Shown piece by piece: positions 9,209-64,000 of a DNA stretch of 64,000 nt. The DNA comes from an uncultured Chloroflexia bacterium (GTDB lineage Bacteria; Chloroflexota; Anaerolineae; CG2-30-64-16). The DNA lies in NCBI GenBank assembly GCA_963800615.1, contig CAWDBO010000037.1:1152-65151 (forward strand), given 5' to 3'. A model generated the notes under the pieces. The model was not told the origin of the DNA, did no database searches, and saw nothing but the letters and a program-made list of their open reading frames with translations. The translations under genes and the position numbers were made by a program. Position 1 is the stretch's first letter, and the number at the start of each line of letters is the position of its first letter.

Positions 9209-11993
9209 CTACGCAAGCTCGGTCAGCCGGTCGCGCAGCCGCGCCGCCCGGCCTTCGAGCTCGCCGAGCTTGTCTCGCTCGCGCGCCACCACGTTCGCCG
9301 GCGCCCGCTGCGCGAACGGGCCCTGCAGCAGCCCCGAGGTGCGCGCGATTTGCGCCTCGGTTTCGGCCAGTTCCTTGGCGAGCCGGTTGCGCTCCGCCTC
9401 GAAGTCGATCAGGTCCGCCAGCGGCAGGTACGTCGTCACCAGCCCGGTCACGAGCGTCAGTGCCTGCGGCGGCGCATCCAGCCGCTCTGCGATCGTCAGC
9501 TGAGCCGGGTCCAGCCGGGCAAGCGAGCACAGGATGTCGGCGTGCCGCTTGAGCATCGGCGCGCGTTCCCCGGCGGCAATACTGGCGTGCAGCGGCTGGC
9601 CCGGCTTCACGTCGTACTCCGCGCGGGCGTTGCGGATCGCGCGCACCATGTCCATGATCTAGCCCCATGTCCGACTCGGCCGCTTCGTCGCGCATGGCGG
9701 TCGCCGGCCACGGCGCGATGATCAGGCCCGCGGGCCACTCGCCTCCGGCATTCCCCACCGCCTGCTTCAGATACCCCCACGTCTCTTCGGTCACGAACGG
9801 GATGTAGGGATGCAGCAGCCGGAGCGACTCGTCCAGCACTTTGATGAGGACGGCCTGCGTGCGCGCCTTGGCTTCGGGCGAACCCCGGTAGATGGCGATC
9901 TTGCTGATCTCCAGGTACCAGTCGCAGAACTCGCTCCAGAAGAAGTCGTAGATCTGGCGCCCGGCCTCGCCGAACTGGAAGGTGTCCATCAGGCGGGTGG
10001 CGTCCGCGAGGGTGGCCGACAGCCGGCTCAGGATCCACCGCTCGGGAAGATCCAGGTTCTGACCTTGCCACAGAGGACTCAGAGCGCTCCGAGGTGGCTC
10101 CGAGGTCTCTGTGCTCTCTGTGGCTGTTCCGTTGCCCAACTGCGACAGGATATAGCGGGTGGCGTTCCAGATCTTGTTCGTGAAGTTCCGGTTGCCCTCC
10201 ACCCGCTGCAGGCTCAGGTTCATGTCGTTGCCCGGCGTCGCGCCCGTCAGCAGCGTGAAGCGCAGCGCGTCCGCGCCCATCGCGGCGATGCCCTCCGGAT
10301 ACTGCTTGCGCACGTAGTCGCTCAGCTCCTCGGGCCGCGCGCCGTCCAGCAGCGCGAGCGGATCGAGCACGTTCCCCGTGGTCTTGGACATCTTCCGGCC
10401 CTGGTCGTCTCTGACGAGGCCGTGCAGGTACACGGTCTCGAACGGGATGTCGTTCGTGTAGAGCAGGCCCTGCATGATCATGCGCGCCACCCAGAAGAAC
10501 AGGATGTCGTAGCCCGTCTCCATCACCGTCGTCGGATAGTAGCGGCGCAGGTCGGGCGTGTCGTCGGGCCAGCCGAGCGTCGAGAACGGCCACAAGCCGG
10601 ACGAGAACCAGGTGTCGAGCACGTCCGGGTCCTGCTCGATGCGCGACGAGCCGCAGCTCTCGCAGCGATCCGGGTCGATCCGGGCCACGGTCGTATGGCC
10701 GCACTCCGCGCAGTGCCAGGCCGGGATGCGGTGTCCCCACCACAACTGCCGGCTGATGCACCAGTCGCGGATGTTCTCCAGCCAGTTGTAATACACCTTC
10801 GTGAAGCGCTCCGGGATGATCTCGATGCGGCCCGAGCGCACCGCTTGCAGGCCCATGTCGGCCATGGGCTTGATTTTCACGAACCACTGCGTGCTGACCA
10901 TCGGCTCCACGATTTCGCCCCCGCGCTGCGAGCGCGGCACCTGTGTACGGTAAGCTTCAACCTTGATCGTCAGCCCCGCGGCTTCCATGTCGGCCCACAG
11001 TTTCTTGCGCGCTTCGAACCGGTCCATGCCCGCGTACGGCCCGCCCGCGGCGCTCACCTTGGCGTCCTTGTCGAGCATCCCGATGATTTGCAGGCCATGC
11101 CGCTGCCCGATCTCGAAGTCGTTCGGGTCGTGCCCGGGCGTGATCTTGAGCGCCCCCGTCCCAAACTCCATGTCCACGTACGTGTCGTGGATCACGGGGA
11201 TGGGCCGCTTGAGGATGGGCACCAGGCACGTCGCACCGATCAGGTGGCGGTAGCGCTCGTCGTCCGGATGCACCGCCACTGCGGTGTCGCCCAGGATCGT
11301 CTCCGGCCGCGTCGTCGCCACCGGGATGTAGCCCTTGCCCGGTCCGTCCTCCAGGTTCGCGCCCGCGATCGGGTACTTGAAGTAGTAGAGGGCCGCGTCT
11401 TCCTCGGTGTACTCCACCTCCAGGTCGCTGACCGCGGTCTGCAGCCCGGGCGACCAGTTGATCAGGTACTCCCCGCGGTAAATCAGGCCCATCCGGTACA
11501 GCCGCACGAACGCCTCGCGCACCGCCTGGCTCAGCCCTTCGTCCATCGTGAAGCGCAGCCGGTCCCAGTCGCACGACGCGCCCAGCCGGCGCAGCTGCCG
11601 CACGATGTGGCCGCCGTACTTTTCCTTCCACTCCCACGTCCGGCGCAGAAACTCGGCCCGCCCCAGGTCCTGCCGGCGCAACCCCTCGCGCGCCAGCATC
11701 TTCTCCACCTGCAGCTGCGTGGCTATGCCCGCATGGTCATAGCCCGGCACCCACAGCGCCGCGTACCCCCGCATCCGCTTGTACCGGATCATCAGGTCCT
11801 CGAGCGACACGAACATGGCGTGGCCCAGGTGCAGCTCGCCAGTGATGTTCGGCGGCGGGATCGAGATCACGAACGGCTGAGCGTCCGGCGGAGCAATCTC
11901 TGGCTTGAAGTAGCCGTTCGACTCCCACCAGTCGTAGATCCTGCGCTCGGAGGCGCTGGGATCGTAGGTCTTGGGCATTTCGAATGATGTCAT
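9209..11993 (-). CDS. valS: valine--tRNA ligase, one frameshift near 9658
   Basis: Class I HIGH motif (PPNITGELHLGHA), KMSKT motif (GRKMSKTTGN), and full-length ValRS-like sequence. The C-terminal coiled coil (ORF 9209..9655, MDMVRAIRNARAE...) is in another frame: ctagatc should read ctgatc. RBS GGAGAGG. Confidence 0.95.
10068..10123. repeat. imperfect palindromic word-repeat (CACAGAG words) inserted in frame inside valS
   Basis: ccacagaggactcagagcgctccgagg-tgg-ctccgaggtctctgtgctctctgtgg. Translated on the minus strand it gives ATESTETSEPPRSALSPLW in the variable loop between NKIWNATRYIL and ERWILSRL. Confidence 0.6.
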
Positions 11994-24913: not shown

Positions 24914-25008
24914 CAACCACCAAGATACCAGGAACCGAAGGTTCACAAAGACGATCTCGTTCTGTCTCCAACTTCGTGAGCCTTTGGTTCTTCGTGACTT
25001 GGTGGTGA
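24914..25008. repeat. word-hairpin repeat (family P3) in divergent promoter region
   Basis: caccaagataccaggaaccgaaggttcacaaag...cttcgtgagcctttggttcttcgtgacttggtggtg. Confidence 0.6.
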
Positions 25009-34343: not shown

Positions 34344-35724
34344 CTAAATGACGATGCCGATGAGGTCATCACCGTCGAGGCCGGTCAGGTGGGTTTGAGT
34401 GATCCGGTTGTGCAAGTCAATCCCCGGCAGCGTCGTCGTCCGCACCCGCAGGTAATTATCCGTCAGGCCCGACCAAGTCTCACGCACCTCCAGGAATCCG
34501 CTGACCTCCGGAATCCCGCTGACCTCCGAGGTTTCGAAAACCTCGGAGGTCTTTTCCGCGCCTGATCTCCGCACGCTCTCCCACAAGACCGAACGCACCT
34601 CGCCGACGAACGATGCGCGCACGCCGGCGCCCAGCTCCGCGTCGAGACCCGTCAGAACCTTGACCCGGCGCTTGCGCTCCGCTTCGGAACCTGCCCGCTG
34701 AAACTCGCCGCGGCCGTGCCTTGCCGCGCCGAATAGGGGAAAACGTGCATATGCGCGAAGCCGGCTGCGCGCGTGCGAAGGCCACCGTCTCTTCGAAGTC
34801 GGCCTCCGTTTCGCCAGGAAATCCCACGATCAGGTCGGTGGTGATCGTCACGCCGGGTATCGCCGCCCGCGCGGCATCGACCAGCCGCTCGAAATCCGCA
34901 GCGCGGTTCCGCCGCGCCATGCGCTTGAGCACCGCGTCGCTGCCCGATTGCGCGGGCAGGTGCAGGTGCGGCATGAGCCGGCCGCCGGCCTGCGCCCAAA
35001 GTCGAAGAACCCCGGCTGCAGGTCGAACGGCTCCAGCGACGACAGCCGCAGCCGCGGGATTTCGGTCTCGGCCAGCACCGCGGCGGTTAACTCGCTCAGT
35101 CCCGTTCCCAGGTCCGACCCATACCCCCCCAGGTGGACGCCCGTGAGCACCGCCTCCTGGAACCCTTCTTCGTGGAGTCCCCGGATTTCCGCCACGATCT
35201 CCGCGATCGGCCGGCTGCGCTCTGCCCCCCGCGCCACGGTCACGATGCAGAACGTGCACTTGTTGCGGCACCCGTCCTGCACCTTGATAAACGCCCGCGT
35301 CCGCCGTTCGGAGTTGCGGGGATGAGGGGATGCGGGGATAGGGCCATGCGCTTGGACGTCATCCCCGTAATCCCCTGCCATCCCCGCCGCTTCGTTCTCG
35401 ATAATCGAAGCCAGCTCATCCTTGCGGGTGTTGCCGACGACGAGGGTGACGTTCGGGAGCTTGCCGACGGTCTCGCCTTCGAGCGTGGCGTAGCAGCCGG
35501 TGACGATCAGCTTCGATGCCGGATTGCGTCCGCGCCATCTGCCGCGCCAGCTGGCGGCTCTGCCGGGCCGCCTCGCCGGTCACCGCGCAGCTGTTCAAAA
35601 CACAAAGATCCGCGCCGTGCGCGCTGGGTGTTATCTCGTGACCCGCTTCGGCCAGCTGCCGGCCGAGGGCCGCCATTTCGGCGTAATTCAGCCGGCAGCC
35701 CAATGTTTCCAGGTAAACTCGCAT
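34344..35724 (-). CDS. mtaB: tRNA threonylcarbamoyladenosine methylthiotransferase MtaB-like radical SAM enzyme, at least 4 frameshifts, two repeat insertions
   Basis: [16 protein letters not shown] and NSCAVT (MTTase N domain), [16 protein letters not shown] (radical SAM CxxxCxxC), [18 protein letters not shown], and a TRAM-like end LTDNYLRV. Confidence 0.8.
34498..34551. repeat. P1 palindromic element (plus half-copy) lying in frame in the mtaB TRAM region
   Basis: ccgctgacctccggaatcccgct-GACCTCCGAGGTTTcgaAAACCTCGGAGGTC. It translates as [21 protein letters not shown]. Confidence 0.7.
35316..35387. repeat. GGGGAT/ATCCCC word-hairpin element (family P4) lying in frame in mtaB
   Basis: gcggggatgaggggatgcggggat...atccccgtaatcccctgccatccccgc. 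It translates as [24 protein letters not shown], between the MTTase N domain and the radical SAM core. Confidence 0.6.
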
Positions 35725-40616: not shown

Positions 40617-42713
40617 GCGCCGGCGCGCGCGGCGCCGCCGCGCGACCGGACGCTGGCCGGTTGTCGCGCGCTCTGGCCGGCGTTCTCGCCTTGCCGTCTA
40701 CATCCGGTCCCTCGCGCCCGGCCTGCTCTGGGGCGACAGCGCCGAGTTCCAGTTCGCCGCGTGGCTCGGCGGCTTCGCCCACCCGACCGGCTATCCCCTC
40801 TACCTCATGCTCGGCTGGCTCTGGACCCACCTGCGTCCCCATTCGCGATCCCGCGTTCCGCATGAACCTGTTTTCGGCCTGTGGGGCGGCATCGCAGTTG
40901 CGCTGTTCTGCCTGCTGGTGATCCGGCTCTTCGTTCTGCGAGCACTTCCTGCTGCGTCGCGTGCCGCAGACCTGACAGGTTTCGCCAAACCTGTCAGGTC
41001 TCGTCGCGCGGCGCCCCTCGCGTCATCGCCCTCGGCGCCGCCCTCGTCTTCACCTTCACGCCCGACCTTCTGGTCGCAAGCCGTCATCGCCGAGGTCTAC
41101 ACCTTGCATGCCGCTTTCGTCGCCGCGCTCCTGCTCGCCCTGCTTCTCTGGGCCGAGCGGACTTGCGAGGGCGACGTCCCGGCCGCCCGGCGCCGCTCGT
41201 ACCTCGTCGCGCTGCTCTTCGGCCTCAGCCTCGCCCACCACCGCTCGACCATCCTGCTGATCCCTGCGGCCGCTCTGTTCGTCGCCATCGTCCTGCTTGG
41301 GACCCGGACCCGTCCGCGCTTCTCACGCCGCCAGGCGGCAGTGCTGCTCGCCTGTCTCCTTGCCCCGCTCTTACTCTACCTTTACATCCCGCTGGCTGCG
41401 CCTGCATGCGCCGTACTACCGGCTCGCCCTGTCGCCCGGCCACGCCCTGCCGCTGTACGATTCCACCCTCGGCGGTTTTCTCGCCCACGTCAGCGGCAGC
41501 GTCTTCAGCTCCTCGCTGGCCGCAGCCCCGCTCGGGCGCGCTTGACCTCGGTCAGCTTACGGGCCGCTTTGCCGCTGAGCTTTCGGCCAACGGCCTGCTG
41601 CTCGGCGCGTTCGGCCTGGTGACGCTGCTCATCCTGGCATTCCGGCGCAAGAGCCTGCGCGCCTGGGCCGTGCTCGCGCCTGACCGGCCTCTTCTTCATC
41701 GCACAGGTCGCCTTCAACCTCTTCTACGCCATCGGCGACATCTACGTCTTCTACATCCCGGCCTACCTGGTCTGGGTCCTGTGGATCGCGATCGGCGCCT
41801 GGGGCCTGGTCGCGCTGGCGGCATGGCTCTTCGCGGGCCAGGGCGAAGCCGTCCGCCGTTGGGTCGTCGCGGTCGCCTCGGTCCTGCTTCTCGCCGTGCT
41901 CCTCGCCTTCGCCTATCGCTCCGCCGTCGAGTATTGGCCGAAGGTCCAGCGAGCCGGCGACGATTCCGGCCGCCCGCGCATGGGATGCCCTCTGCGCGCT
42001 GAGCTTCCGCAAAATGCGATCCTGGTCAGCAACGACCGCGACGAGATGGTGCCGCTGTGGTATCTGAAGTACGTCGAGGGCCGGCGCACTGACCTCGACG
42101 GCCTGTTCCCCCTGATTCAGCCCGGCCCCGCATGGGCGGATGTGGCACGCGTCACGGATGCTGCGCTGCAAACCGGCCGTCCGGTCTACCTGGTCAAACC
42201 GATGCCGGGGCTTGAGGTCCGTTACGATCTTGCGCCGCTTCCGGGCGAGCCGGTCGGACCGCTCGGCCCGGCCGTTCGCGTCGCGGCCCCTGCGCCGCGC
42301 ATCGCCCGCGCACAAGCTCGACATCACCTACGGGGATGCTATCCGTTTGCTCGGGTATGATGTGACCCCTGACCCGCTCGCGCCGGGCGAACAGGCACAG
42401 GTGACGCTGTACTGGCAGCCGCTGCGCGAGCTGAAGGAGGACTGGACGACATTCGTCCAGGTCGTCGACGCGACGGGCGACAAGGTCGGGCAGAGCGACC
42501 ACCAGCCCGGCGGCGCGTTCTATCCGACCGGCCCTGTGGGCGGTGGGCGAGCGGCTGCGGGATACACACACGGTGACGATTGCGCCGAGCCGCGCCGGGC
42601 ACTTACCGTTTGGTCGTCGGGCTCTACGTGCCGGCCGGCGAGCGGCCTGCGGCAGCTCGGGCGAGCCGCAGACGGTCGGCGAATTGCCGCGTCACTCCAT
42701 GATGCAATCGTAA
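40613..42713 (+). CDS. DUF2723/TMEM260-like polytopic membrane protein (putative glycosyltransferase), many frameshifts
   Basis: YIRSLAPGLLWGDSAEFQFAAWLGGFAHPTGYPLYLMLGW is a DUF2723 hallmark. There are multiple TM blocks, and the C-terminal part YGDAIRLLGYDV...VTLYWQPL resembles other such proteins. The GTGA start overlaps the previous stop. The end is approximate. Confidence 0.55.
40968..41001. repeat. P1-variant palindrome inside the DUF2723 coding region
   Basis: AGACCTGACAGGTTTcgccAAACCTGTCAGGTCT. It translates as ADLTGFAKPVRS within a TM-rich region. Confidence 0.6.
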
Positions 42714-44667: not shown

Positions 44668-44682
44668 CTTCGCCGATCCTTA

Positions 44683-44714
44683 GGAACCAGGTTTCTGTCA
44701 GAAACCTGGTTTCT
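44683..44714. repeat. P2 element: two adjacent 15-bp palindromes
   Basis: gGAACCAGGTTTCTgtcAGAAACCTGGTTTCT, 16 nt after the etfA stop and 30 nt before the rpsA -35. Confidence 0.75.
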
Positions 44715-47243: not shown

Positions 47244-47331
47244 TGCTCCACCATAGTCGTATCCCTGACCGCCCGGCCCCAGCGCCGGGCGTTTGTCTAT
47301 CTCGCACGGAGATTTTCGATCACCGGGCACA

Positions 47332-47362
47332 GACCTCCGAGGTTTCGAAAACCTCGGAGGTC
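47332..47362. repeat. P1 palindromic element
   Basis: GACCTCCGAGGTTTcgaAAACCTCGGAGGTC, intergenic. Confidence 0.8.
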
Positions 47363-47404
47363 TCGATCGGTACTGAGGTGTTGGGTGGCGTTTAGTGAGG
47401 CTCG

Positions 47405-53156: not shown

Positions 53157-53187
53157 GACCTCCGAGGTTTGCGCAACCTCGGAGGTC
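53157..53187. repeat. P1 palindromic element (loop variant), preceded by ATCCCCGC x3
   Basis: GACCTCCGAGGTTtgcgcaAACCTCGGAGGTC; upstream lies catccccgcatccccgcatccccgc (53100-53125). Confidence 0.75.
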
Positions 53188-54836: not shown

Positions 54837-54912
54837 CACCACCAGGGCACAAAGAACCGAAGGCCCACAAAGGAGACTTTGTGAACCTTCGGTTCTTTGT
54901 GCCTTGGTGGTG
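54837..54912. repeat. word-hairpin repeat (family P3), about 34-bp stem
   Basis: CACCACCAGGGCACAAAGAACCGAAGGcCCACAAAG-gaga-CTTTGTGaACCTTCGGTTCTTTGTGCCTTGGTGGTG. Confidence 0.8.
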
Positions 54913-54921
54913 GGTTCAGCC

Positions 54922-55926
54922 TTACTTCCGCAAGGCCTCGGCAAACGCCCCGCGAACTCCGCCGGATCCCCCACCACGTTGTAATCCGCAAACGGCACGA
55001 TCGGCGCGCCCGCATCCGCCTGCGCCGCCACCACGCACCCCGCGTCCGCGATCCCCATCATGAAGTTGGTGTCCCCGTCCACCCCCAGACGCGATGCACA
55101 GCTTCGGCTTGATCGTGAACCCGGTCATCCCCACCAGCGCTTCTTCCGTGATCCAGCCCGCATCGAGCGCGGTCACGTCGCCTGCAACCACCCCGCCCAG
55201 CGCCTCGGCCAGTTCCTGCGCCGCCGCGAACCCGGCCTCGTCGCCCAGGCCCTGCCCGGTCACCACCACGGTCTCCGCGGTCGTCAGCGTCAGCGGCTTT
55301 GGCGCCAGCTCCACCATCTCGTGCATGGCCGGCTCTGCCCAGGCCAGCCCCGTGTCGCTGACCTCCCCCTGCCGCCACGTCTCCTTAAAGGCCGGCGGGC
55401 AGCAGCGATGTCTCCACCAGCACCACCGCCGGCGTGCCGAGCAGAGCCGCACCTGCACCCGCGCCGCGTCCTCCATCACCGGCTGGTGCGCCACGATCCG
55501 CTGGTAGACCGCGTCGAATGCGACGTCGGCCGCATATCGGCTCAGGCTGCCGCCTAGCATCTGCGCCAGGCCCGGCCCCAGGTTGCGGCCCAGCTGCGTC
55601 CGGGGCAGCAGGATCGCCTGCGGCTGCCGCTCGCGGAAGTACTCCGCCAGGTCGCTGACCGACGGCGTGCCGGCTGCGGTCAGCACCTTGTCGCCGCCCG
55701 CATGAATGGCCGCTTGCGTGTCCGCGCCCGTGGCGCCGCACCCCGCCAGCACGTAGACATAACCACCGAGAGCATCCGCCACGACCCGGCCTTTGCCGAT
55801 CAGCCGCAGCATCCCGTCGTCGATCGTCCCATCCGGCGTCACGACCCACACGCCGCCCGTCTCGCCCGTCGGCTCCTCGTATGATCCGCCCATCAAGGCC
55901 TGGAGATCGGAAAGATCAAAGCCCAT
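54922..55926 (-). CDS. etfA: electron transfer flavoprotein alpha subunit paralog, at least 3 frameshifts
   Basis: AAGGAG RBS. VVVTGQGLG, GGVVAGDVTALDAGW, GMTGFTIKPKLCIA.GVDGDTNFMMG (stitched). Confidence 0.75.
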   Translation of the reverse strand: MGFDLSDLQALMGGSYEEPTGETGGVWVVTPDGTIDDGMLRLIGKGRVVADALGGYVYVLAGCGATGADTQAAIHAGGDKVLTAAGTPSVSDLAEYFRERQPQAILLPRTQLGRNLGPGLAQMLGGSLSRYAADVAFDAVYQRIVAHQPVMEDAARVQVRLCSARRRWCWWRHRCCPPAFKETWRQGEVSDTGLAWAEPAMHEMVELAPKPLTLTTAETVVVTGQGLGDEAGFAAAQELAEALGGVVAGDVTALDAGWITEEALVGMTGFTIKPKLCIASGGGRGHQLHDGDRGRGVRGGGAGGCGRADRAVCGLQRGGGSGGVRGAFAEALRK

Positions 55927-55942
55927 AGCTTATCTCCTTAGG

Positions 55943-56737
55943 CTACCGCTTCCCGAGCCCTGGCTCGGGAAGCGCCCGTTTCGCTGCCAGGATGCCCGCC
56001 AGCTCGACTGCAGCCTCAGCCGGCGCGCCGCTCAGGACCTGCCCCCGTTGGCGTTCCGGTCCGAGCACGAGGCTCCCCATCTCCGCGTCCGGCGCCAGCT
56101 CCTCTTCGGCCACGCCCAGCTCCGCGGCCGGCCACGTCTCGACAAAGCCCTCATTCCACGCCACCGCGATCCGCGAGGGGTGCGGGTAGCGCGGCCGCTC
56201 GGGCCCGGCCATGACCATGGCGACCGCGGGCAGCGCGACCGGCACGCGCACCGCGCCCCCATCGCGCGCCGAGATCGCCTGCAGCCCGTCCGCGCCGTCC
56301 TCGAACGCCAACACGTCCATCAGCAGCGGCCTGTCGAGCGCGGCGGCCAGCCGGCCCGCCAGCGGTCCCACGGCATCCAGGTCGCCCGACCGGCCTGCCA
56401 GGATCAGGTCCGCGCCGCCCAGCCGTTCGAGAGCGGCCTGCGTCAGTGCGGTCACGCCCCTGCCGGTCGGCTGCCCCTTCTGCACGATCAGGACGCCCTT
56501 GTCCGCGCCCATGGCCACGGCCTCGCGGGCCGTGTCTTCCGCGCCCCGGCCGCCCACCACCACGGCAATCACCTCGGCGCCCACCGCATCCTTGAGCCGG
56601 AGCGCCGCCTCCAGCGCGTACTTGTCTTCGGGCAGCGTCCGCATCCGCGCCTCGCGCAGGTCCAACTCTTCGCGGCTGCGCGAGATTTTCACGCTCTGCG
56701 GGTCAAGCCCCTGTTTCATGCACACCACGATTCGCAT
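55943..56737 (-). CDS. etfB: electron transfer flavoprotein beta subunit paralog
   Basis: Intact 264 aa: MRIVVCMKQ, EDKYALEAALRL, LILAGRSGD. GAGGAGG RBS. Confidence 0.8.
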   Translation of the reverse strand: MRIVVCMKQGLDPQSVKISRSREELDLREARMRTLPEDKYALEAALRLKDAVGAEVIAVVVGGRGAEDTAREAVAMGADKGVLIVQKGQPTGRGVTALTQAALERLGGADLILAGRSGDLDAVGPLAGRLAAALDRPLLMDVLAFEDGADGLQAISARDGGAVRVPVALPAVAMVMAGPERPRYPHPSRIAVAWNEGFVETWPAAELGVAEEELAPDAEMGSLVLGPERQRGQVLSGAPAEAAVELAGILAAKRALPEPGLGKR

Positions 56738-56770
56738 GTTTCCTCCTCACCCAGACCTCCCAGGCGTCCA

Positions 56771-56801
56771 GACCTCCGAGGTTTCGTAAACCTCGGAGGT
56801 C
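56771..56801. repeat. P1 palindromic element (plus upstream half-copy at 56752-56760)
   Basis: GACCTCCGAGGTTTcgtAAACCTCGGAGGTC, between the acd stop and the etfB start. Confidence 0.8.
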
Positions 56802-56825
56802 TCCGGCATCCCGAAGACCCCCACC

Positions 56826-57994
56826 TTACGGCCGCACCCGCACGCCATACGGCCGGAGCATCTGCTCCGCGATGACGATGCGCTGCACCTCATTGGTGCC
56901 CTCGAAGATCTCCGCGATGCGCGCATCGCGCCACGCCCGCTCGATCCAGAAATCACGGCTGTAGCCGAGCGCGCCATGGACCTGCAAGGCCCGGTTGATC
57001 GCCCGCGACGCGACCTCCGACCCGAAGAGCTTGCAGATGCCCGCCTCCTTCGTGTACGGCTGGTCCGTGTCGACCATCCACGCGGTGCGGTAGACCATCG
57101 AACGGAGCGCCTCGACCTCCGCCGCGGTGTCCGCGATCATCCACTGGATCATCTGCTTCTGCCCGATCGGCTTGCCGAACTGCTCGCGGCCCGCTGCGTA
57201 CCGGCACATGCTGTCCAGCGCGACCTCTGCCCCGCCCAGGCAGGCCGCACCCAGGCCCAGCCGGCCCGTGTCCAGCGTCGCCATGAACGTCACAAACCCC
57301 GCGCCCACCTGTCCCAGCACGTTGGCCGACGGCACCACCACCTCGTCGAACACCATCTCCGACGTCGCGCTGCCGCGGATGCCCATCTTGTGCTCGATCG
57401 TTCCGACCGACACGCCCTCCATAGCCCTTCTCCACGATGAAGGCGGTCACACCGCCGCGCACGCCCAGGCTCGGGTCGGTGACCGCGAGCACGGTGAACA
57501 CGTCGGCGATCGGGCCGTTGGTGATGTAAATCTTGTTGCCGCTGATGACCCAGTTGCTGCCGTCCTTGACCGCCCGCGTCTTGATCGCCGCCGCATCGGA
57601 CCCTGCGCCCGGCTCCGTGAGGCAGAACGCCGCGATCTTCCGGCCGTTACACAGGTCGGGCAAATACTTCTTCTTCTGCTCCTCGTTGCCCGCCGAGGTA
57701 CAGCGCCATGACGCCGATGCCGATATGCGCGCCGATCAGGGTCGCGGTGGAGGTGCACACGCCGCCCATCGTCTCCATCAGCAGGCAGTAGCCGAGCTCG
57801 CCCAGGCCGCCGCCGCCGTACTTGGTCGGGAATGGCACGCCGAGCAGCCCGTTCTCGCCCAGCTTGCGGATGACCTCCATGTCCGGCCAGCCCTGCGCGT
57901 CCACCTGCTTCGCCTTCGGCGCCACCTCGCACTCCGCGAACTCGCGCAGCGTCTCCTTGAAGAGCTGTAGATTCTTCGGAAGCGTAAAATCCAT
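56826..57994 (-). CDS. acyl-CoA dehydrogenase, two frameshifts
   Basis: MDFTLPKNLQLFKETLREFA; CLTEPGAGSDAAA; YITNGP; and the C-terminal GALGYSRDFWIERAWRDARIAEIFEGTNEVQR. GGAGG RBS before the second ATG. Confidence 0.9.
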
Positions 57995-58015
57995 TCTTCC
58001 CTCCATGACACGCCA

Positions 58016-58048
58016 AGAAACCAGGTTTCTGCCGGAAACCTGGTTTCT
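58016..58048. repeat. P2 element: two adjacent 15-bp palindromes
   Basis: AGAAACCAGGTTTCTgccgGAAACCTGGTTTCT, in the 48-nt spacer between the two acd genes. Confidence 0.8.
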
Positions 58049-58054
58049 TATTTG

Positions 58055-59221
58055 TCAGGGCCTCACCTTGATGCCCGCGGGTCCGAGCAGGCTGCCGGCG
58101 ATGACGATCTGCTGCATCTGCGACGTGCCTTCGACGAGCTCCATCGCCCGCGCATCCCGGTAGTAGCGTTCCATCGGGTAGTCCGCGATGAAGCCCGCGC
58201 CGCCGTACACCTGCACCATCTTGTTCGTCACTTCGTTCGCCATGCGCCCGCAGAACAGCTTCGCCATCGCGGCCTGCTGCGTGAACGGCTGCCCCTGGTC
58301 CGCCAGCCACGCCGCGTGGCGCACCAGCCACCGCCCGGCGTCGACCTCCGTCGCCGCGTCGGCCAGGTACATCTGGATCGCCTGCTTGTTCGCGATGGCC
58401 GTGCCGAACTGCGTGCGCTGGATCGCGTAGGCCGCGGCCAGCTCGATCGCTTTCGCCGCGCCGCCCACCGCGGCGGCCGAGATGCCCACCCGGCCGTAGT
58501 CCAGCGTCTCCATCGCGATCTTGTACCCCCCGCCCTCCTGGCCCAGCAGGTACTCTTCCGGCACACGCACACCCTTCAGATAGAGCCGGTGGATCTGCGC
58601 GCCCCGCAGGCCCAACGTCTTCTCGCGGCCGCCCAGCACCACGCCTTCGTTCTCTGCCGGCACGACAAACGCGCTGATCCCCTTTGCCCCCGCGCCCGGG
58701 TCCGTCGCCGCAAAGATGATGTAAACCCCTGCGACGCCCGCGTTTGACACCCACGTCTTGCTGCCCGTAATAACCCAGTGGCTGTCCTCTTTGCAGGCAA
58801 CCGTCCGCAGCCGCGTCGGGTCGCTGCCCGCGCCGCCTTCGGTCAGGGCAAACGCACCGATCCGGTCCCCGCTCACCATCTCCGATACGAAGTCCTCTTT
58901 GGCAAGCTCGGAGCCATGCTTGACGAGCGTCCGGAGTGCCAGCACGTTATGGACGTGCAGCGTCAGGGCCGTGCTGGCGCATTCGGCCGCCATCGCCTCC
59001 ACCAGCAACGTATAGGTGGTGAAGTCGAGCCCTGCGCCCCCGTACGGCTCCTCGGGCGCGAACACGCCCAGGAATCCCTGCCCCGCGGCCCGCTTGATCA
59101 GCCGGCTCGGAAACTCTTCTTTCTTGTCGGTCTGTTCCGCCACCTTCGCCACCTCCTTGGTCGCGAAATCGCGGAACAGTTTCTGGAACATCTGCTGTTC
59201 TTCGGTCAATACGAAGTCCAT
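58055..59221 (-). CDS. acyl-CoA dehydrogenase
   Basis: Intact 388 aa from MDFVLTEEQQMF (AAGGAG RBS). ALTEGGAGSD, WVSNAG, YGGAGFIADYPMERYYRDARAMELVEGTSQMQ. The listed 586-aa ORF runs on upstream through a stop-free repeat. Confidence 0.9.
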   Translation of the reverse strand: MDFVLTEEQQMFQKLFRDFATKEVAKVAEQTDKKEEFPSRLIKRAAGQGFLGVFAPEEPYGGAGLDFTTYTLLVEAMAAECASTALTLHVHNVLALRTLVKHGSELAKEDFVSEMVSGDRIGAFALTEGGAGSDPTRLRTVACKEDSHWVITGSKTWVSNAGVAGVYIIFAATDPGAGAKGISAFVVPAENEGVVLGGREKTLGLRGAQIHRLYLKGVRVPEEYLLGQEGGGYKIAMETLDYGRVGISAAAVGGAAKAIELAAAYAIQRTQFGTAIANKQAIQMYLADAATEVDAGRWLVRHAAWLADQGQPFTQQAAMAKLFCGRMANEVTNKMVQVYGGAGFIADYPMERYYRDARAMELVEGTSQMQQIVIAGSLLGPAGIKVRP

Positions 59222-59260
59222 GGCGGCTCCTTTCTCAAGACCAGAGCGCTGTCGCCGGTC

Positions 59261-59347
59261 TAACTTCGTAACCACAAAGTATCCAAGAGACGAAGGTTCA
59301 CAAGGACCTTTGTGTGACCTTTGGTTCTTCGATTCTTCGTGGTTAAG
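59261..59347. repeat. word-hairpin repeat (family P3)
   Basis: cttcgtaaccacaaag...cgaaggttcacaaggacctttgtgtgacctttggttcttcgattcttcgtggtta. Confidence 0.7.
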
Positions 59348-59360
59348 GCGCAGCCTCAAG

Positions 59361-61390
59361 TCACGAGTTCCATCTCGTTCGAGAGCCGGTGCATCCTGAC
59401 AATGCGCTATCAGGTCGGCCAGAAACGCCCGCGTGCGTTCGACCCGCGCCGGATCGCCCGCTTGCGTGCCCGGCCCCGCCAGCCCCGTCAGCTCGCGGAA
59501 CGTCATCCGGACCATTCCCAGGTTCACGCCGGCCAGCCGCCGCATCAAATCTTCCCACCCTCCACCGACCGCCGGGTTAGCGTGGTTATGGATGCGCAGC
59601 GCGACCTGCGCAGCCGGCGACCGCCCCAGGTTCTGGGGCACCGCCTCATTCACCCGCTTCCCCGCGATTGCGAAGTAATAGCTCGCCATCGGGTTGACCA
59701 GCCGCTGGATGCGCGGCCACACGCAGTCGGCTTCCTGCGCCAGCCCGAAGAACGCCAGGTAGAACGGCACGGCCTCGGCATAGTTGCCCGACACGAACGC
59801 GTGCCCCGCCTTCACGGAGCAGTAGCTCGCCAGGTACCACTTCAGGTCGTCGAACCCCGCCCGCGGCTGTCCCGCCGCGCACTGCGTCCAGCTGGACGCG
59901 CGCCGCTTGCAGGTACCGCTGCGCGCTGCCCGCGAAATCTTTCTGCCGCAGGTCCGAGGCCTCCCGGAACAAGCTCTCGGCCAGCGCCACGGTCGGCTCT
60001 CCGGGCGGCAGCGCGACCTTCGCGACGGCCGCCGCCGCCATCAACAGCTCCTCGCGGTTCAGCAGCCGGTCGATTGTCGCCGCCGCGATCGCACACCCGT
60101 CTTCCGCATCCCGAGCGAACCCGTGGCTCGCAAGCCGCTGGCACAAGGCTTGCACCCGCTCCGAGCCCGCGCCCGGCCCGTAGAGCACCGGCGCAAGCGC
60201 TTCCGCGTCGACCGCGATGCCCCCCTCGACGATCCGCGACACGTATACGCAGTCGCAAGCCGCGTTCAGTTCGTCCAGCGCCAACGCCTGTGGGTCGAGC
60301 AGCGGCGCGTCGCTCCCCGGTTGGCCCCCCTCGTAGCGCAGTGCATCGCTCATCACCAGCAGCCGCATCATTTCCGCGACCGCGATCTTCTGGGTCAGCG
60401 CGTTTTCCGCGTCGTACCGGTCCTTGAGCAGGTCCGCAGCTTGGTTCAGCGAGAGCGGGGTTGCCGCCGACTGGACGGCCGCCAGGAAATCGACCAGCAC
60501 CTGCTGTCGCGTGGCCGCGTCAATCACGCGCAGGCCCGCTTCGCGCAGGAAGCTGCGGAAGCGTTGGCTCGGATCGATGTCCGCCGCAGGCTTGAAAATC
60601 GGCGGCGCGGTGTTCTCGCTCAGCGGCCCCACGACCGCAGCGCCCGGCGGATCGCCCGGCTTCCGCAGCCGGACGTAGAGCTGCATGTCCACTTCCTGCA
60701 AGGTGATCATGTTGAGCTGCCCTTCCAGGAAGGCGCGGAACTGCTGGTAGCCGTAGTTGGCCTCGTTGAACGACGAGTCGAGGCTCAGCATGATCTGCTT
60801 CAGGCGGCCCGCGAAGACCGGCGTCTCGCCCTTCTGCTCGGCCGCCGGCCAGCGCCCGCCGCAGCAGTTCCCGCGGGTCAGGCAGCTGCAGCTCGTCCGC
60901 AATGTCCGCCAGCTCTTCACTCACCAGCGTTTCGTAGAAGATGAACTCGTCGCACGCCCGGCGCAGCAGGTCCGACGTCGCCGAGTGCAGGCCGATGCCG
61001 ATGGTGTACTTCCCGTAGTCCCGCAGCTTGTGGATCAGCTCCGGTGAAGTCGGAGTCGCCCGAAACGATCGCATACACGTCGATGTTCGGCCTCGTGAAC
61101 ACGGCTTCCATCGCGTCGATCGCCAGGCGCACGTCCGCCCGGTTCTTCTGCTGGATGCCCACCGAGTACAACTGGAGCAGGTCGATGCCGTTTTCGAGCA
61201 TCGGCCGCCGGTAGCGATGAAAGCGACCCCAATCGCCGTATGCGCGCTTAATCAGAAGCCGTCCACGCGAGCGCAGCAGGTCCGTAACGGCCGTAACATC
61301 AAAATCGCCGTAATTGGCTTCTGCGGATGTCGCTACGTTTTCAAAATCGATGAAGACCGCGATTTGCGGCCCATCCAGGCGCATTTCCAT
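59361..61390 (-). CDS. NYN (LabA-like) nuclease domain - OST-HTH/LOTUS domain protein with about 400-aa uncharacterised C-terminal region, at least 3 frameshifts
   Basis: IAVFIDFENV...AYGDW...NRADVRLAIDAM...YAIVSGDSDFT.LIHKLRDYGKYTIGIG is the NYN domain. FAGRLKQIMLSLDSSFNEANYGYQQFRAFLEG is the LOTUS domain. The 3-prime end is uncertain; an out-of-frame TGA at 59361 is the nearest stop. Confidence 0.65.
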
Positions 61391-61411
61391 TTGAGAGAAA
61401 ATCCTTTGTTC

Positions 61412-61444
61412 AGAAACCAGGTTTCTGTCAGAAACCTGGTTTCT
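61412..61444. repeat. P2 element: two adjacent 15-bp palindromes
   Basis: AGAAACCAGGTTTCTgtcAGAAACCTGGTTTCT; the flanks extend the symmetry (ttc...gaa). Confidence 0.8.
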
Positions 61445-61455
61445 GAACGCGTTAG

Positions 61456-62250
61456 TTAGCTATCCGTAAACTTCGGCTGCCGCTTCTGCACGAACACGCT
61501 GATGCCTTCCACCAGGTCATGGCTGCCCACCAGGCCCATGAACTGCTTGGTCTCGAACTCCAGCCCCTGGTCCAGCGGCATCTCGCCGCCTTCGACGACC
61601 GAGATCATCGCCGCGCTGATTGCCAGCTTGCTCTTCGCCGCGATCTTCTTCGCCAGCCCCATCGCCTCGTGCAGCACCTGTCCCGCGGGCACCACCTTGT
61701 TCGCCAGCCCGATGCGGAACGCCTCCTGCGCGTTGATCATGTCGCCCGAGAGGATCAGCTCGAGCGCCTTCCCCTGTCCCACGACCCGCTGCAGCCGCTG
61801 CGTGCCGCCCCAGCCTGGAATCAGGCCCAGGTTGGTCTCGGTCAGCCCGACGCGTGCCCGGTCGGCCATGATGCGGATGTGGCATGCGAGCGCCAGCTCG
61901 AGCCCGCCGCCCAGCGCCACCGCGTTGATCGCCGCGATAAACGGCTTCGGCGAGCACTCGATCTTCTTGTAGAGCGACTTCGCCCGCAGCAGCGCGTCCT
62001 GCGCCACGTCCAGCTTGCCGCCGGTGAACCACTCGGACACTTCCTTCAGGTCCAACCCGGCCACGAACGCAAACTGGCCTGCCCCGGTCACCACCACCAC
62101 CTTGACCTGGTCATTCGCCAGCAGTTCGTCCACCGCCGCATCCATCTCCGCCACCGTCTGCGTGTCGAACGCATTCGCGGGCGGATGGTCGATCGTGAGA
62201 ATCGCGACACGGTCTTCGATCGCAACCTTCAAGTTTGAGTATTCAGCCAT
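61456..62250 (-). CDS. enoyl-CoA hydratase (crotonase family)
   Basis: Intact from MAEYSNLKVAIEDRVAILT (AAGGAG RBS). VVTGAGQFAFVAGLDL, AAINAVALGGGLELALACH, ETNLGLIPGWGGTQRL. Confidence 0.9.
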   Translation of the reverse strand: MAEYSNLKVAIEDRVAILTIDHPPANAFDTQTVAEMDAAVDELLANDQVKVVVVTGAGQFAFVAGLDLKEVSEWFTGGKLDVAQDALLRAKSLYKKIECSPKPFIAAINAVALGGGLELALACHIRIMADRARVGLTETNLGLIPGWGGTQRLQRVVGQGKALELILSGDMINAQEAFRIGLANKVVPAGQVLHEAMGLAKKIAAKSKLAISAAMISVVEGGEMPLDQGLEFETKQFMGLVGSHDLVEGISVFVQKRQPKFTDS

Positions 62251-62274
62251 CGTCTTACTCCTTGCGAAAAAGCC

Positions 62275-62347
62275 CCTCACCACAAAGCCACCAAGGTTCA
62301 CTAAGGCTTTCACCGTGCCTTAGTGGTGCCTTTGTGCCTTTGTGGTT
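62275..62347. repeat. word-hairpin repeat (family P3)
   Basis: caccacaaagccaccaaggttcactaaggc...gccttagtggtgcctttgtgcctttgtgg. Confidence 0.75.
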
Positions 62348-62364
62348 AAATTCCAACTTCCGCC

Positions 62365-63573
62365 TTACGCGTACTCGTGGAACCCGCGGCCGGCCTTCAC
62401 GCCGGTGTGCCCCGCGTTGACCTTCTGCCGCAGCAGCCATGCCGGGCGGAACCGCTCGCCATATTCCTTCTGGAGGTTCTCCAGGTCTTGCAGGATGCAG
62501 TCCAGCCCGATTTCGTCCGCAATCGCCAGCGGCCCCTTGCGCTCGCCCTTGTAGCTCATGCCCAGCCCCGCAATGCAGGCCATGTCGATGTCCGCCGGGT
62601 TCGCGATATGCTCGGTCAGCGCGATCACCGCCTCGTTGATCATCGGGTACATCACCCGCTCGGGCGTGAACTGGCTGCCCTCCTTCTTCAGGTCCGCGGT
62701 GAGCTCCGCAACTGGCGCATCGTTCTCTTCGCCGTAGCCGTAGATGCCCTTGCCGACCTTCTCTCCCAGGCGGCCGGCTTCCAGCATCCGGTACATCAGC
62801 TGCGGCAGTTCCATGCGAACGCCGTACTCCCGGTGCATCTGCTCGCCCGCGTGCGTCGCAATATCCAGCCCCACCGTATCCGTGAGGATGAACGCGCCCA
62901 TCGGCATGCCGAAGTCCCGCAGCGCCTCGTCGATCTCGGTCGCCGAAGCCGCGCCCTCCTGCAGGCAGTAGGCGGCTTCGTTGAGGAACGGCGCCAGCAG
63001 GCGGTTCACCAGGAAACCCGGGCACTCACGCACCGTGACCGGCAGCTTCCGCAGCGACTCGGCAAACATCACGACGTCGTCGACCGTGTCCTGGGCCGTC
63101 TCCAGCCCGGGGATCACCTCGATCAACTTCATGACGTGAGCGGGATTGAAGAAGTGCATCCCGATCACCTTGCCGGGCCGCTTCGTCGCCGAGCCCATCT
63201 CGCTGATCGAAAGCGCCGAGGTGTTGCTGGCAAGGATCGTCGTCTCGGGGCACACCCGGTCCAGTTCCGCGAACACCGCCTTCTTGACGGACATCTTCTC
63301 CGGCACCGCCTCGATCACGATGTCCACGTCGGCGAAGCTGTCGTAGCTGAGGGAGGGCTCGACGAGGCTGATCTTGCTCTCCATCTCGCCCGCGCTCATC
63401 TTGCCCTTGTCCACCCGGCCCTGATAGATGTGCCGGATCGTCTCCATGCCCTTGTCGAGCATCTTCTGGTCGACGTCTTTGAGGACCACCGGAAGCCCGC
63501 TAAACGAGATCACCTGCGCGATCTCGCCCCCCATCGTCCCCGCGCCGACCACCGCCGCCTTAAAAATGTACAT
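62365..63573 (-). CDS. 3-hydroxyacyl-CoA dehydrogenase (NAD-binding plus two C-terminal domains)
   Basis: Intact 402 aa from MYIFKAAVVGAGTMGGEIA (AAGGAGG RBS). NTSALSI, HFFNPAHVMKLIEV, GFLVNRLL. Confidence 0.9.
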   Translation of the reverse strand: MYIFKAAVVGAGTMGGEIAQVISFSGLPVVLKDVDQKMLDKGMETIRHIYQGRVDKGKMSAGEMESKISLVEPSLSYDSFADVDIVIEAVPEKMSVKKAVFAELDRVCPETTILASNTSALSISEMGSATKRPGKVIGMHFFNPAHVMKLIEVIPGLETAQDTVDDVVMFAESLRKLPVTVRECPGFLVNRLLAPFLNEAAYCLQEGAASATEIDEALRDFGMPMGAFILTDTVGLDIATHAGEQMHREYGVRMELPQLMYRMLEAGRLGEKVGKGIYGYGEENDAPVAELTADLKKEGSQFTPERVMYPMINEAVIALTEHIANPADIDMACIAGLGMSYKGERKGPLAIADEIGLDCILQDLENLQKEYGERFRPAWLLRQKVNAGHTGVKAGRGFHEYA

Positions 63574-63598
63574 GCCCAATCCTCCTTGCGAAGCGAAC

Positions 63599-63675
63599 GT
63601 CACCACCAAGTACCGAAGAAAGGAAGCTTCACAAAAACCTTGGTGAACCTTCGTTTCTTTGATTCTTTGTGGTGA
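63599..63675. repeat. word-hairpin repeat (family P3)
   Basis: caccaccaagtaccgaagaaaggaagcttcacaaaaaccttggtgaaccttcgtttctttgattctttgtggtg. Confidence 0.75.
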
Positions 63676-63676
63676 A

Positions 63677-64000
63677 CTAGATCCTCTCCACGACGACAGC
63701 CGAGCCCTGGCCGCCGCCGACGCACAGCGTCGCCGCACCGTAGCGCGCGTTCCGCCGCTTCATCTCGTGCAGCAGGGTGACCACGATGCGCGAGCCCGAC
63801 GCGCCGACCGGGTGCCCCAGCGCGATCGCGCCGCCGTTGACGTTCGTCTTGTCGGGGTCCCACCCATGCCCGTCGGCCTGCATCGACTTCGCCACCCCCA
63901 GCACCTGCGCCGCAAACGCCTCGTTGATCTCCACCAGGTCCAGCTGATCGTACTTCAGCCCCGCCCGCTTCAGCGCCTTCGGCAGCGCCGTCGCGGGACC
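63677..64000 (-). CDS. acetyl-CoA acetyltransferase (thiolase), C-terminal part; continues beyond window
   Basis: [26 protein letters not shown] and [16 protein letters not shown] are thiolase C-terminal signatures. Confidence 0.9.

Follow-up and report, generated by a model that had tools for sequence, protein, structure and literature searches.

The gene junctions of a fatty-acid operon that runs from thiolase to etfA are occupied by hairpins, and we consider it probable that these hairpins are copies of dispersed repeats, which entered short spacers as DNA and have been tolerated there, with effects on the RNA being secondary. The operon lies at the end of a 64-kb window (the whole stretch of DNA that was analysed), which also contains further copies of the same repeats in other spacers and inside genes.

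The operon and its junctions

The operon is encoded on the minus strand (54922..64000, with a partial thiolase gene), and Pfam assignments agree with the gene order given by the first-pass annotation: thiolase (C-terminus, 63677-64000), 3-hydroxyacyl-CoA dehydrogenase (hbd, 62365-63573), enoyl-CoA hydratase (ech, 61456-62250), a NYN/LOTUS gene between ech and acd1, the acyl-CoA dehydrogenases acd1 (58055-59221) and acd2 (56826-57994), etfB (55943-56737) and etfA (54922-55926). The order is conserved in the related loci L001-L009 and L020. The L001 orthologue of the NYN gene combines NYN with OST-HTH/LOTUS, and at least 10 relatives keep such a gene within the operon. Frameshifts in NYN, acd2 and etfA match 1-2-nt indels relative to short-read contigs and are probably assembly errors. 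The assembled NYN frame (ORF 58055-59815) passes through the element at 59261-59347 and continues into acd1 with no stop in between. The elements are not an assembly artefact, as metagenome contigs built from short reads of the same population extend into them.

All seven elements that had been claimed (four P3, two P2 and one P1) were found at their positions, with predicted fold energies of -23 to -65 kcal/mol, and at each junction the stop codon precedes the element and an unpaired ribosome-binding site follows it. The gap between etfB and etfA, described as 16 nt long and free of an element, has that length, but a hairpin is nonetheless present in the last codons of etfB. It is a single-copy palindrome with a 12-bp stem (55947..55974, minus strand) encoding the last ~10 codons (ALPEPGLGKR), which are missing from the etfB of relatives, ending in ...KRLL/RRLI. 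Counting this unique palindrome, a hairpin is found at 8 of 8 operon junctions. The three proposed families P1, P2 and P3 are real; however, P1 and P2 share one architecture, in which a 13-15-nt odd palindrome is present twice in inverted orientation. We regard the elements as dispersed palindromic repeats of the REP kind, which are probably mobile.

The P1 and P2 doublets

P1 has five copies in the window. The copy at the acd2/etfB junction (56770..56802) is the doublet AGACCTCCGAGGTTT-acg-AAACCTCGGAGGTCT and is followed by a degenerate half copy (GGGAGGTCTGG). Others are located in the spacer between a DksA/TraR-type gene and a DHH-family gene (47331..47363), in a convergent-gene spacer (53157..53187) beside a threefold direct array of the word CATCCCCG (53100-53125), and at 40968..41001, where a variant has a different core (AGACCTGACAGGTTT ... 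AAACCTGTCAGGTCT). The remaining copy (34521..34551, minus strand) is in frame in an ORF without Pfam or PDB match, is translated into 11 residues and has partial word copies next to it.

At least 120 metagenome contigs, with GC contents of 37-66% and flanks that are unrelated to each other, contain the exact P1 hairpin, as do 8 IMG/VR contigs. Intergenic P1 lies in 19 convergent, 30 co-directional and 6 divergent contexts, at median distances of 39 nt to the stop codon and 87 nt to the start codon. In 7 long ORFs an in-frame P1 gives the peptide (Q/K)TSEVxxTSEV, and one phage-like module has P1 at 4 consecutive junctions. Four contigs (L165, L161, L138 and L097) contain a gene for a REP-associated tyrosine transposase (RAYT) flanked by P1, identified by NCBIfam NF047646 (82.1 bits, cut-off 80 bits) and Pfam Y1_Tnp (43.6 bits); a RAYT paralogue sharing 38% identity has another palindrome of the same design on its flanks. 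The REP/BIME-type assignment proposed earlier is thus supported by a cognate, P1-flanked RAYT gene in other contigs and by the preference of intergenic P1 for sites just past a stop codon in co-directional or convergent spacers. Since no RAYT gene lies within the 64-kb window, we infer rather than observe the mobilisation of P1 in this organism.

P2 has the same doublet anatomy and three copies in the window. At the ech/NYN junction (61408..61448, -31 kcal/mol) it begins 8 nt past the ech stop and has perfect 20-nt arms, each with the odd palindrome GAAACC(A/T)GGTTTC, and at the acd1/acd2 junction (58015..58049) it lies 6-7 nt past the acd1 stop with perfect 15-nt arms. The third copy (44682..44714) follows a second etfA paralogue, 14 nt past its stop codon, and lies upstream of the gene for ribosomal protein S1. 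One soil metagenome has at least 15 contigs that carry P2 at an end and differ in their flanks, and P2 is also present in several RNA contigs (sparse metatranscriptome contigs of relatives). Neither a transposase nor a target-site duplication was found for P2 or for P3.

The P3 word hairpins

P3 is a hairpin of ~80 nt composed of 7-9-nt words, which is present in a sister genus as well. A covariance model detected five copies in the window, to which two variants can be added, and compensatory changes at 6 of 29 pairs preserve the hairpin. The copy at the thiolase/hbd junction (63599..63675, minus strand, -31.8 kcal/mol, 78.9 bits) begins 2 nt past the thiolase stop and ends 26 nt ahead of the hbd ATG, so that it does not cover the GGAGG ribosome-binding site. 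The hbd/ech junction holds a copy with the words CACAAAGG/CCTTTGTG (62275..62347, minus strand, -38 kcal/mol, 47.9 bits) and the NYN/acd1 junction another (59261..59347, minus strand, 71.6 bits). The copy after etfA, between convergent genes (54837..54912, minus strand, -65 kcal/mol, 90.3 bits), has a near-perfect 35-bp stem. L001 has P3 at the orthologous NYN/acd1 and post-etfA positions (14191-14278 and 18527-18605, respectively). Outside the operon, P3 separates a divergent response-regulator gene from a MoxR-type AAA ATPase gene (24916..25006, 77.1 bits), and a different word hairpin family with GGGGATG/CATCCCC words occurs at 35316..35387 (-60 kcal/mol).

A P3/P1 hybrid palindrome with outer CACAGAG and inner CTCCGAGGT words is in frame in valyl-tRNA synthetase (10067..10124, minus strand), and contributes ~18 extra residues, placed between the catalytic domain and the anticodon-binding domain, which appear as a gap in the comparison with 1GAX. 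The occurrence of the same elements in frame in housekeeping genes and in a phage-like contig fits selfish spread.

Turnover and density of the elements

Metagenome alleles skip the elements at 56737>56817, 57994>58059, 61392>61463 and 63576>63677; the first has 12 nt instead of P1 and the second 13-14 nt instead of P2. Element-free junctions are 10-14 nt long in L001, L004, L005 and L008, and 3-14 nt overall among close relatives and metagenome alleles. The same junctions carry unrelated hairpins in the closest relatives, and metagenome contigs have loose ends precisely at the element edges. The compact element-free junctions, together with the copies inside genes, indicate colonisation of permissive sites at the DNA level.

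The unusual local density pointed out in the first-pass annotation is evident. The window contains 18 strong hairpins as compared to 1-2 in Markov shuffles, and the operon is denser than the remaining window by ~5.5-fold for the three named families and by 2.5- to 4-fold for all hairpins. The operon makes up 13.8% of the window and contains 7 of the 15 members of the families (binomial p = 0.002), 4 of the 5 P3 copies (p = 0.0016) and 7 of the 24 strong hairpins of any kind (p = 0.04), these p-values being nominal because the densest stretch had been chosen beforehand. Among 80 relatives, tandem 7-8-nt word arrays reach 0.388 per kb in the operon versus 0.119 in the flanks (3.3-fold; per-locus Wilcoxon p = 1e-4), which makes the operon a real hot spot, and 24.8% of co-directional spacers in the operon bear an array versus 7.7% in the flanks. 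Generic strong palindromes are not enriched in the relatives' operons (0.27 vs 0.26 per kb).

Origin of the junction hairpins

The ancestral spacers would have been short, holding a ribosome-binding site only, and the elements would have entered them as DNA and stayed because they left reading frames and ribosome-binding sites intact. P1, and by its anatomy P2, would be REPIN-like REP doublets of inverted 13-15-nt odd palindromes 3-6 nt apart, moved in trans by a RAYT, a HUH Y1 transposase acting on single-stranded DNA hairpins. The P3 arm can be read as four 7-9-nt words in a row (CACnAAG...), a class of word hairpin that is common in Anaerolineae. Transcribed in the polycistronic mRNA, the elements would form very stable stem-loops just 3' of the stop codons, which probably block 3'-exonucleases or receive RNase III cuts, by analogy with REP/BIME and Correia elements. 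Such blocking or cutting is probably a side effect and not a designed stoichiometry device, although it may be mildly favoured in this operon. Neutral tolerance alone does not easily explain the word-array excess and the persistence of P3 across genera, which leaves room for selection at the RNA level.

The first-pass annotation had suggested a differential stoichiometry of the operon products. The hairpins would then be adaptive intercistronic RNA elements, decay barriers or processing sites that set the ratio of thiolase/hbd/ech to acd/ETF by splitting the long mRNA into segments differing in stability, possibly with participation of the NYN-LOTUS nuclease. We consider this possible but doubtful. 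In its favour are the enrichment in the window's operon, the higher density and spacer share of word arrays in relatives, the P3 kept at two orthologous junctions in another genus, the free ribosome-binding site at every junction and the conserved NYN + LOTUS gene, and a like proposal exists for cyanobacterial STRR hairpins in the hupS-hupL spacer (PMC2670836). However, relatives and alleles have compact junctions without an element, non-homologous elements occupy one junction even among close relatives, and members of the families are also found within coding sequence and in a phage-like contig. The lack of enrichment of generic palindromes and the equal fold energies on sense and antisense strands also speak against it, and a hairpin behind each cistron would give equal, not differential, protection.

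Two other explanations concern protein binding to P2 and transcription termination. That P2 is a DNA operator for a dimeric TetR/FadR-type fatty-acid regulator and not a mobile repeat seems quite unlikely to us, although all three window copies adjoin acyl-CoA dehydrogenase or ETF genes and the AAACC-N-GGTTT palindrome is similar to TetR-family operators; as a lead, the FadR box of Thermus thermophilus is TTRNACYNRGTNYAA. Every copy is just past a stop codon and none is at a promoter, no promoter-like site was found in the P2 junctions, and the window has no single palindromes. Moreover, the complementarity between the halves outruns the palindromes (perfect 19-20-nt arms), P2 is present at contig ends with dissimilar flanks and in RNA contigs, and its architecture is that of P1, which has a cognate transposase. 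We consider it highly improbable that the hairpins are intrinsic or partial terminators between cistrons. They are stable and directly 3' of coding regions, and the post-etfA copy sits between convergent genes, yet no T run (U tract) follows any junction hairpin on the sense strand. Terminator-like sites are at chance level in the region (7 vs 6.2 expected), with none on the minus strand at the junctions, and further copies are located within genes and, at 24916, in a divergent promoter region. Insertion of dispersed repeats remains our preferred reading.

Relation to known repeat systems

The closest systems are REP/BIME and REPIN-RAYT of E. coli and Pseudomonas (PMC3116915, PMC3337134, PMC6006769, PMC3733652). 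Shared with them are short palindromic units, inverted-unit doublets forming a hairpin, numerous dispersed copies whose flanks are unrelated, and the preference for post-stop spacers of co-directional or convergent genes. Also shared are a cognate transposase gene of the Y1/HUH type with the same palindrome on its flanks and, as described for subclasses 2.4 and 2.8, REP copies within the transposase gene. In contrast, P1 lacks the GTAG or CGTC tag of most described REPs, the units are 3-6 nt apart and not tens of nt as in Pseudomonas REPINs, and the host belongs to Anaerolineae (Chloroflexota). Most REPs are species-specific, whereas the same 31-nt hairpin is found here across contigs of 37-66% GC. 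The RAYT link applies to P1 only and comes from other contigs only.

P3 has a counterpart in the cyanobacterial STRR heptamer repeats, which were reportedly described by Mazel in 1990. Both have arms of tandem 7-nt-scale words that vary between species, and both lie in intercistronic spacers of operons (PMC2670836). The STRR hairpin of hupS-hupL has only been proposed to act in transcript stability or translational coupling (PMC2670836). P3 differs in phylum, in its 7-9 nt period with imperfect words (TRF finds only 2.4-2.9 copies per arm), and in having a fixed four-word consensus common to its copies and the sister genus, as one element and not a free array. Rickettsia palindromic elements (RPE; cited in PMC3733652) are likewise both intergenic and in frame, with genes staying open, housekeeping genes included. 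RPE have no sequence relation to the elements here, are longer (~100-150 nt vs 31-58 nt) and differ in host, which is free-living here.

Correia/NEMIS and ERIC elements form long hairpins in polycistronic mRNAs, serve as substrates of RNase III or RNase E and alter the stability of neighbouring cistrons; being MITEs, they have terminal inverted repeats and target duplications, neither of which was found here. PMC3733652 lists both as MITEs. For the 20-35-bp stems of P2 and P3, they are the best functional analogy.

Intervening sequences of 23S rRNA with a PF05635 ORF were reportedly described by Ralph and McClelland in 1993, and the stem of such a sequence is cut by RNase III. The same layout is seen in operons of relatives, where two long inverted arms enclose a loop with a PF05635 gene. 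In this case the host is the mRNA of an operon and not rRNA, the arms are 7-8-nt word arrays, and the window's own elements have no ORF. The small PF05635 genes within word hairpins at the relatives' junctions may be a new lead.

Operon Organization and Junction Hairpins

The gene order of the operon on the minus strand (thiolase, hbd, ech, NYN, acd, acd, etfB, and etfA) was confirmed by Pfam. The nearest relatives of hbd are found in Anaerolineae and other Chloroflexota MAGs, and the best of them, in the locus L001, shares 76% amino-acid identity. In the window, which has a GC content of 66%, the NYN gene, acd2, and etfA are frameshifted at positions 55394, 55443, 57689, 60845, and 61044. At these sites the window differs by indels of 1-2 nt from short-read contigs of several metagenomes, and the frameshifts are probably assembly errors. 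Many other genes of the window are also fragmented, and the window resembles a long-read assembly with leftover indel errors.

In L001, the orthologue of the fourth gene is intact and encodes an NYN domain together with an OST-HTH/LOTUS domain. This 670-residue protein, predicted to cut and bind RNA, is conserved mid-operon in at least 10 relatives (L001:12169-14193, L002-L009, and L020; 59355-61390 in the window). As assembled, the NYN/LOTUS frame (...RVERTRAFLADLIAHCQDAP...) has no stop codon and reads via a P3 hairpin into acd1 in frame (59222-59400; ORF 58055-59815, minus strand). The stop is missing either through a 1-nt assembly error (a TGA is present in the +1 frame at ~59355) or because it was removed by the insertion.

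The first-pass annotation had placed seven hairpin elements of three families (P1, P2, and P3) at the operon junctions. All seven are at their assigned positions, and each is predicted to fold into a single hairpin with an energy of -23 to -65 kcal/mol. The gap between etfB and etfA had been described as empty. It is indeed 16 nt without an element, but a hairpin exists at this junction, inside the end of etfB (55947-55974). The palindrome makes up the last ~10 codons of etfB, which are absent in relatives, and no second copy was found when it was looked for elsewhere. Because this palindrome adds to the seven elements, there is a hairpin at every operon junction.

P1 and P2 as REP/REPIN-Type Doublets

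The stems of P1 (15 bp) and P2 (15-20 bp) are all perfect, and both elements are within the size of a REP unit (~20-40 nt). The P1 arm is the odd palindrome ACCTC-C-GAGGT and the P2 arm is GAAACC-A-GGTTTC. The second arm is the reverse complement of the first at a distance of 3-6 nt, and this is the REPIN layout, with two inverted REP units in one hairpin. Since perfect inverted repeats read identically on both strands, their orientation relative to transcription was rejected as a meaningless measure. The window has five copies of P1 and three of P2, with P1 outside the operon at 34521, 40968 (a variant core), 47331, and 53157, and P2 at 44682. Conservation among the copies is confined to the hairpin, and the flanks are unrelated.

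The same pattern is seen beyond the window. The exact P1 hairpin is present in at least 120 public metagenome contigs with unrelated flanks and also in eight viral contigs (IMG/VR). P2 was found at 15 or more contig ends in the metagenome run X3, and a search for it in viral contigs gave no match. Intergenic P1 copies lie between convergent (19), co-directional (30), and divergent (6) genes, at a median distance of 39 nt to the stop codon versus 87 nt to the start codon, which agrees with the REP preference for the stop-codon side. No target-site duplication of the MITE type (Correia, ERIC) was seen in the flank alignments. The empty-site alleles of metagenome contigs differ by more than the element, and the insertion borders are inexact. 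Most catalogued REPs bear at one end a tag of four nucleotides, GTAG or CGTC (PMC3733652); this tag is absent at the hairpin foot of the P1, P2, and P3 consensus sequences. The sequences of the Escherichia coli REPs (BIME) are unrelated to the window repeats.

Two other identities were considered. P2 might be a TetR-type operator, which its palindrome resembles, and each of its three copies in the window is next to an acd or ETF gene. However, P2 is positioned just after stop codons, its complementarity of 20 nt extends beyond the palindromes, the window has no single sites, and its flanks in metagenomes are many and unlike one another, so that a REP doublet is the better reading. An intrinsic terminator is very unlikely, given the missing U tract at the junction hairpins. 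No T run follows any junction element; terminator-like sites are at chance level, and no junction has one on the minus strand. The REP-type reading, already proposed in the first-pass annotation, is supported by the palindrome doublets, the dispersed copies, and the P1-flanked transposase genes in other contigs. The hairpins are of REP/REPIN and probably STRR-like types, known kinds in a little-studied phylum.

The third P2 is flanked by the ribosomal protein S1 gene and, upstream of that gene, by an ORF whose product has the FAD-binding domain of ETF alpha (44059-44667; region 42800-46468). The identical 31-nt P1 hairpin occurs across metagenome contigs of 37-66% GC (L081-L200), a far wider spread than that of a typical REP family. 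Two IMG/VR contigs (L202:1029-3689 and L206:5278-7938) have a phage-like module with P1 at four gene junctions in a row; one gene of the module, read by eye only, is possibly prohead-protease-like. A REP-kind repeat inside a viral contig is unusual.

RAYT Genes Linked to P1

Among the P1 contigs, four (L165, L161, L138, and L097) contain P1-flanked Y1/HUH transposase genes with the motifs NHYH and YIHxNP. The uninterrupted protein of L165 matches the NCBIfam family NF047646, "REP-associated tyrosine transposase" (RAYT), at 82.1 bits (cut-off 80) and Pfam Y1_Tnp at 43.6 bits. A paralogue in L161 with 38% identity is flanked and interrupted by another palindrome of the same design (AGACCCTAAGGGTTT...), and the palindrome flanking the RAYT gene of L023 is GGTGAC-T-GTCACC. 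The palindromes at the P1-linked genes, the L161 paralogue, and the L023 gene are distinct, so each transposase goes with a palindrome of its own, in line with the REP-RAYT pairs already described. No RAYT gene is present within the 64-kb window. By these results, the REP/REPIN-RAYT system probably extends to Anaerolineae of soil and sediment, with a 31-nt hairpin that is unusually widespread.

In several RAYT genes (L161:6625-7266 and 10756-11385, L138:15-548, and L097:3231-3800), the cognate palindrome lies in frame right after the HUH motif, and the two paralogues of L161 each carry a different one. A REP inside the transposase gene is already known for tnpA-REP subclasses 2.4 and 2.8 (PMC6006769).

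Copies Inside Reading Frames

A minority of P1 copies are inside genes. P1 is read in one frame as (Q/K)TSEVxxTSEV in seven long metagenome ORFs. In the window, the P1 copy at 34521-34551 is in frame within the ORF 34344-34829 on the minus strand, and adjacent partial word copies read SGIPEV and SGFLEV. This ORF has no match in Pfam or among solved structures (PDB). The valyl-tRNA synthetase gene (ORF 9135-11993, minus strand) contains an in-frame 58-nt palindrome (10067-10124) made up of words resembling those of P3 and P1. The palindrome forms an insert of ~18 residues that separates the catalytic from the anticodon-binding domain and is absent at the same place from the Thermus structure 1GAX. 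The C-terminal part of this ORF is also out of frame, probably through an assembly indel.

Palindromes in frame within genes are a behaviour of Rickettsia palindromic elements and of some REPs (PMC3733652). The in-frame insertion in open genes is shared with the Rickettsia type, but the sequences are unrelated and the likeness is one of behaviour only. The in-frame copies argue for spread at the DNA level followed by filtering through selection. They provide a clean example of repeats that colonise spacers and protein loops alike. For annotation, the repeats account for long spacers, extra peptide segments, and interrupted contigs in genome assemblies from this group.

The P3 Family

P3 is ~80 nt long, which exceeds the REP size range. 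Its copies fit a single consensus in which each arm has four CACnAAG-type words at a spacing of 7-9 nt, and the 29-pair hairpin is maintained, with compensatory changes at six pairs. A covariance model of P3 detected five copies each in the window and in the 20-kb L001 locus, plus one in the relative's locus L021 between thl and hbd. Two of the L001 copies are orthologous in junction to window copies (between NYN and acd1, and after etfA). P3 is thus an older family, present in more than one genus. Outside the operon, P3 is found at 24916, with a partial copy at 4139 and the hybrid at 10067. No transposase and no target duplication were found for P3. Tandem Repeats Finder (TRF) reported a period of 8 with only 2.4-2.9 repeats, in only two P3 copies; clear 7-8-nt arrays exist in relatives.

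Junction Turnover and Possible Role in the mRNA

Contigs of relatives from metagenomes, RNA contigs included, skip the elements and retain only 3-14 nt, and junctions of 10-14 nt occur at various operon positions in relatives. In L001 and L005, the closest relatives, the hairpins at the corresponding junctions are unrelated to P1, P2, and P3 of the window. From these comparisons, the junctions appear to have been compact formerly and to be turning over now. The operon therefore works without the elements, as the element-free junctions of relatives indicate.

Each element follows a stop codon and precedes an unpaired ribosome-binding site, and translation starts are preserved. REP/BIME and Correia elements are known analogues for transcribed hairpins. 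By analogy with these, the junction hairpins in the mRNA would probably stop 3'-exonucleases or recruit RNase III. For the transcribed junction hairpins, the STRR hairpins of cyanobacteria are a further analogue (PMC2670836). The first-pass annotation had suggested that the junction hairpins could set a differential stoichiometry of the operon products. The hairpins alone do not predict this, since a hairpin after every cistron would protect all segments alike. A folding bias toward the sense strand, as a sign of RNA-level selection, was not found; both strands fold with equal energy. No family was matched in Rfam at the gathering or a permissive threshold, with just chance microRNA-like matches to the long hairpin. 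The contig ends in the metatranscriptome runs X19 and X20 were rejected as RNA ends; these contigs are short, of low depth, and from relatives, and their ends mark the limit of similarity.

Density of Hairpins and Word Arrays in the Operon

The window has 18 strong hairpins versus 1-2 in shuffled sequences. The operon, which is 13.8% of the window, holds 7 of the 15 family members (binomial p = 0.002), 4 of the 5 covariance-model P3 copies (p = 0.0016), and 7 of the 24 strong hairpins of all kinds (p = 0.04); these p-values are nominal because the operon region was picked for its density. The density, which had been called striking, is higher than in the rest of the window by ~5.5-fold for the named families and by 2.5- to 4-fold for all hairpins. 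It was measured per kb and not per spacer, since the codon-score gene map is fragmented by frameshifts and gives no clean spacer count. The enrichment within the window is real but moderate. Dense runs are not confined to the operon, as the four successive P1 junctions of the phage-like module demonstrate.

We compared the operon with its flanks in 80 loci of relatives, with the presence of an hbd relative as the sole basis of selection. Strong palindromes, taken as a whole, are not enriched in the operon (0.27 vs 0.26 per kb in close relatives; 0.19 vs 0.135 in the 80 loci). Tandem 7-8-nt word arrays reach 0.388 per kb in the operon versus 0.119 in the flanks, a 3.3-fold difference (per-locus Wilcoxon p = 1e-4, 80 loci). 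Co-directional spacers contain an array in 24.8% of cases in the operon versus 7.7% in the flanks (Fisher p = 7e-10, a value that ignores relatedness). The array words vary between species. The hot spot is real and conserved, but the sequences filling it are not. It may originate from selection on the mRNA or from a mutation or insertion bias tied to the operon. This raises the question of why one metabolic operon gathers word hairpins in dozens of species.

PF05635 Genes in the Junctions of Relatives

All nine PF05635 genes found in 1.7 Mb are small, come from other Anaerolineae, and occupy junctions of this operon in the operon's own orientation (L003:11213-11747, L007:2231-2739, L035:1456-2071 and 5571-6052, L029:3365-4073, L011:9321-9904, L074:12435-12927, L061:7170-7720, and L051:15188-15600). 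The PF05635 family bears the name "23S rRNA intervening sequence protein" and is a four-helix bundle. Inverted 7-8-nt word arrays bracket at least seven of the nine genes, for example TTGGTAGA x8 and TCTACCAA x8. An rRNA intervening sequence is arranged in the same way, whereas these genes are inside an mRNA operon. In our literature search, no paper tied heptamer arrays to genes of the PF05635 family. The most interesting loose end of this analysis is the accumulation of word hairpins, some of them with PF05635 genes, specifically in this operon of relatives.

One explanation, which we consider unlikely, is that the thiolase-hbd-ech-acd-etfBA operon of Anaerolineae is a conserved hot spot for undescribed elements resembling rRNA intervening sequences. 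Their arms would be inverted 7-8-nt word arrays, some with PF05635 in the loop, and P3 of the window would represent gene-less versions. The elements would be kept because cutting of the stem by RNase III or NYN-LOTUS splits the mRNA into separately stable pieces. If the build-up does reflect RNA processing, the operon would be a natural system for the study of polycistronic mRNA segmentation.

Word repeats also occur outside the operon in the window, as a GGGGATG/CATCCCC hairpin at 35316-35387 (-60 kcal/mol) and as arrays at 53100-53125 (CATCCCCG x3, adjoining P1) and 39118-39144 (CTCTGTGG x3). A direct tandem array of P3 words (TTAACCACAAAGGGCACAAAGGT x6) is present at L115:12-151, a metagenome contig that also holds P1.
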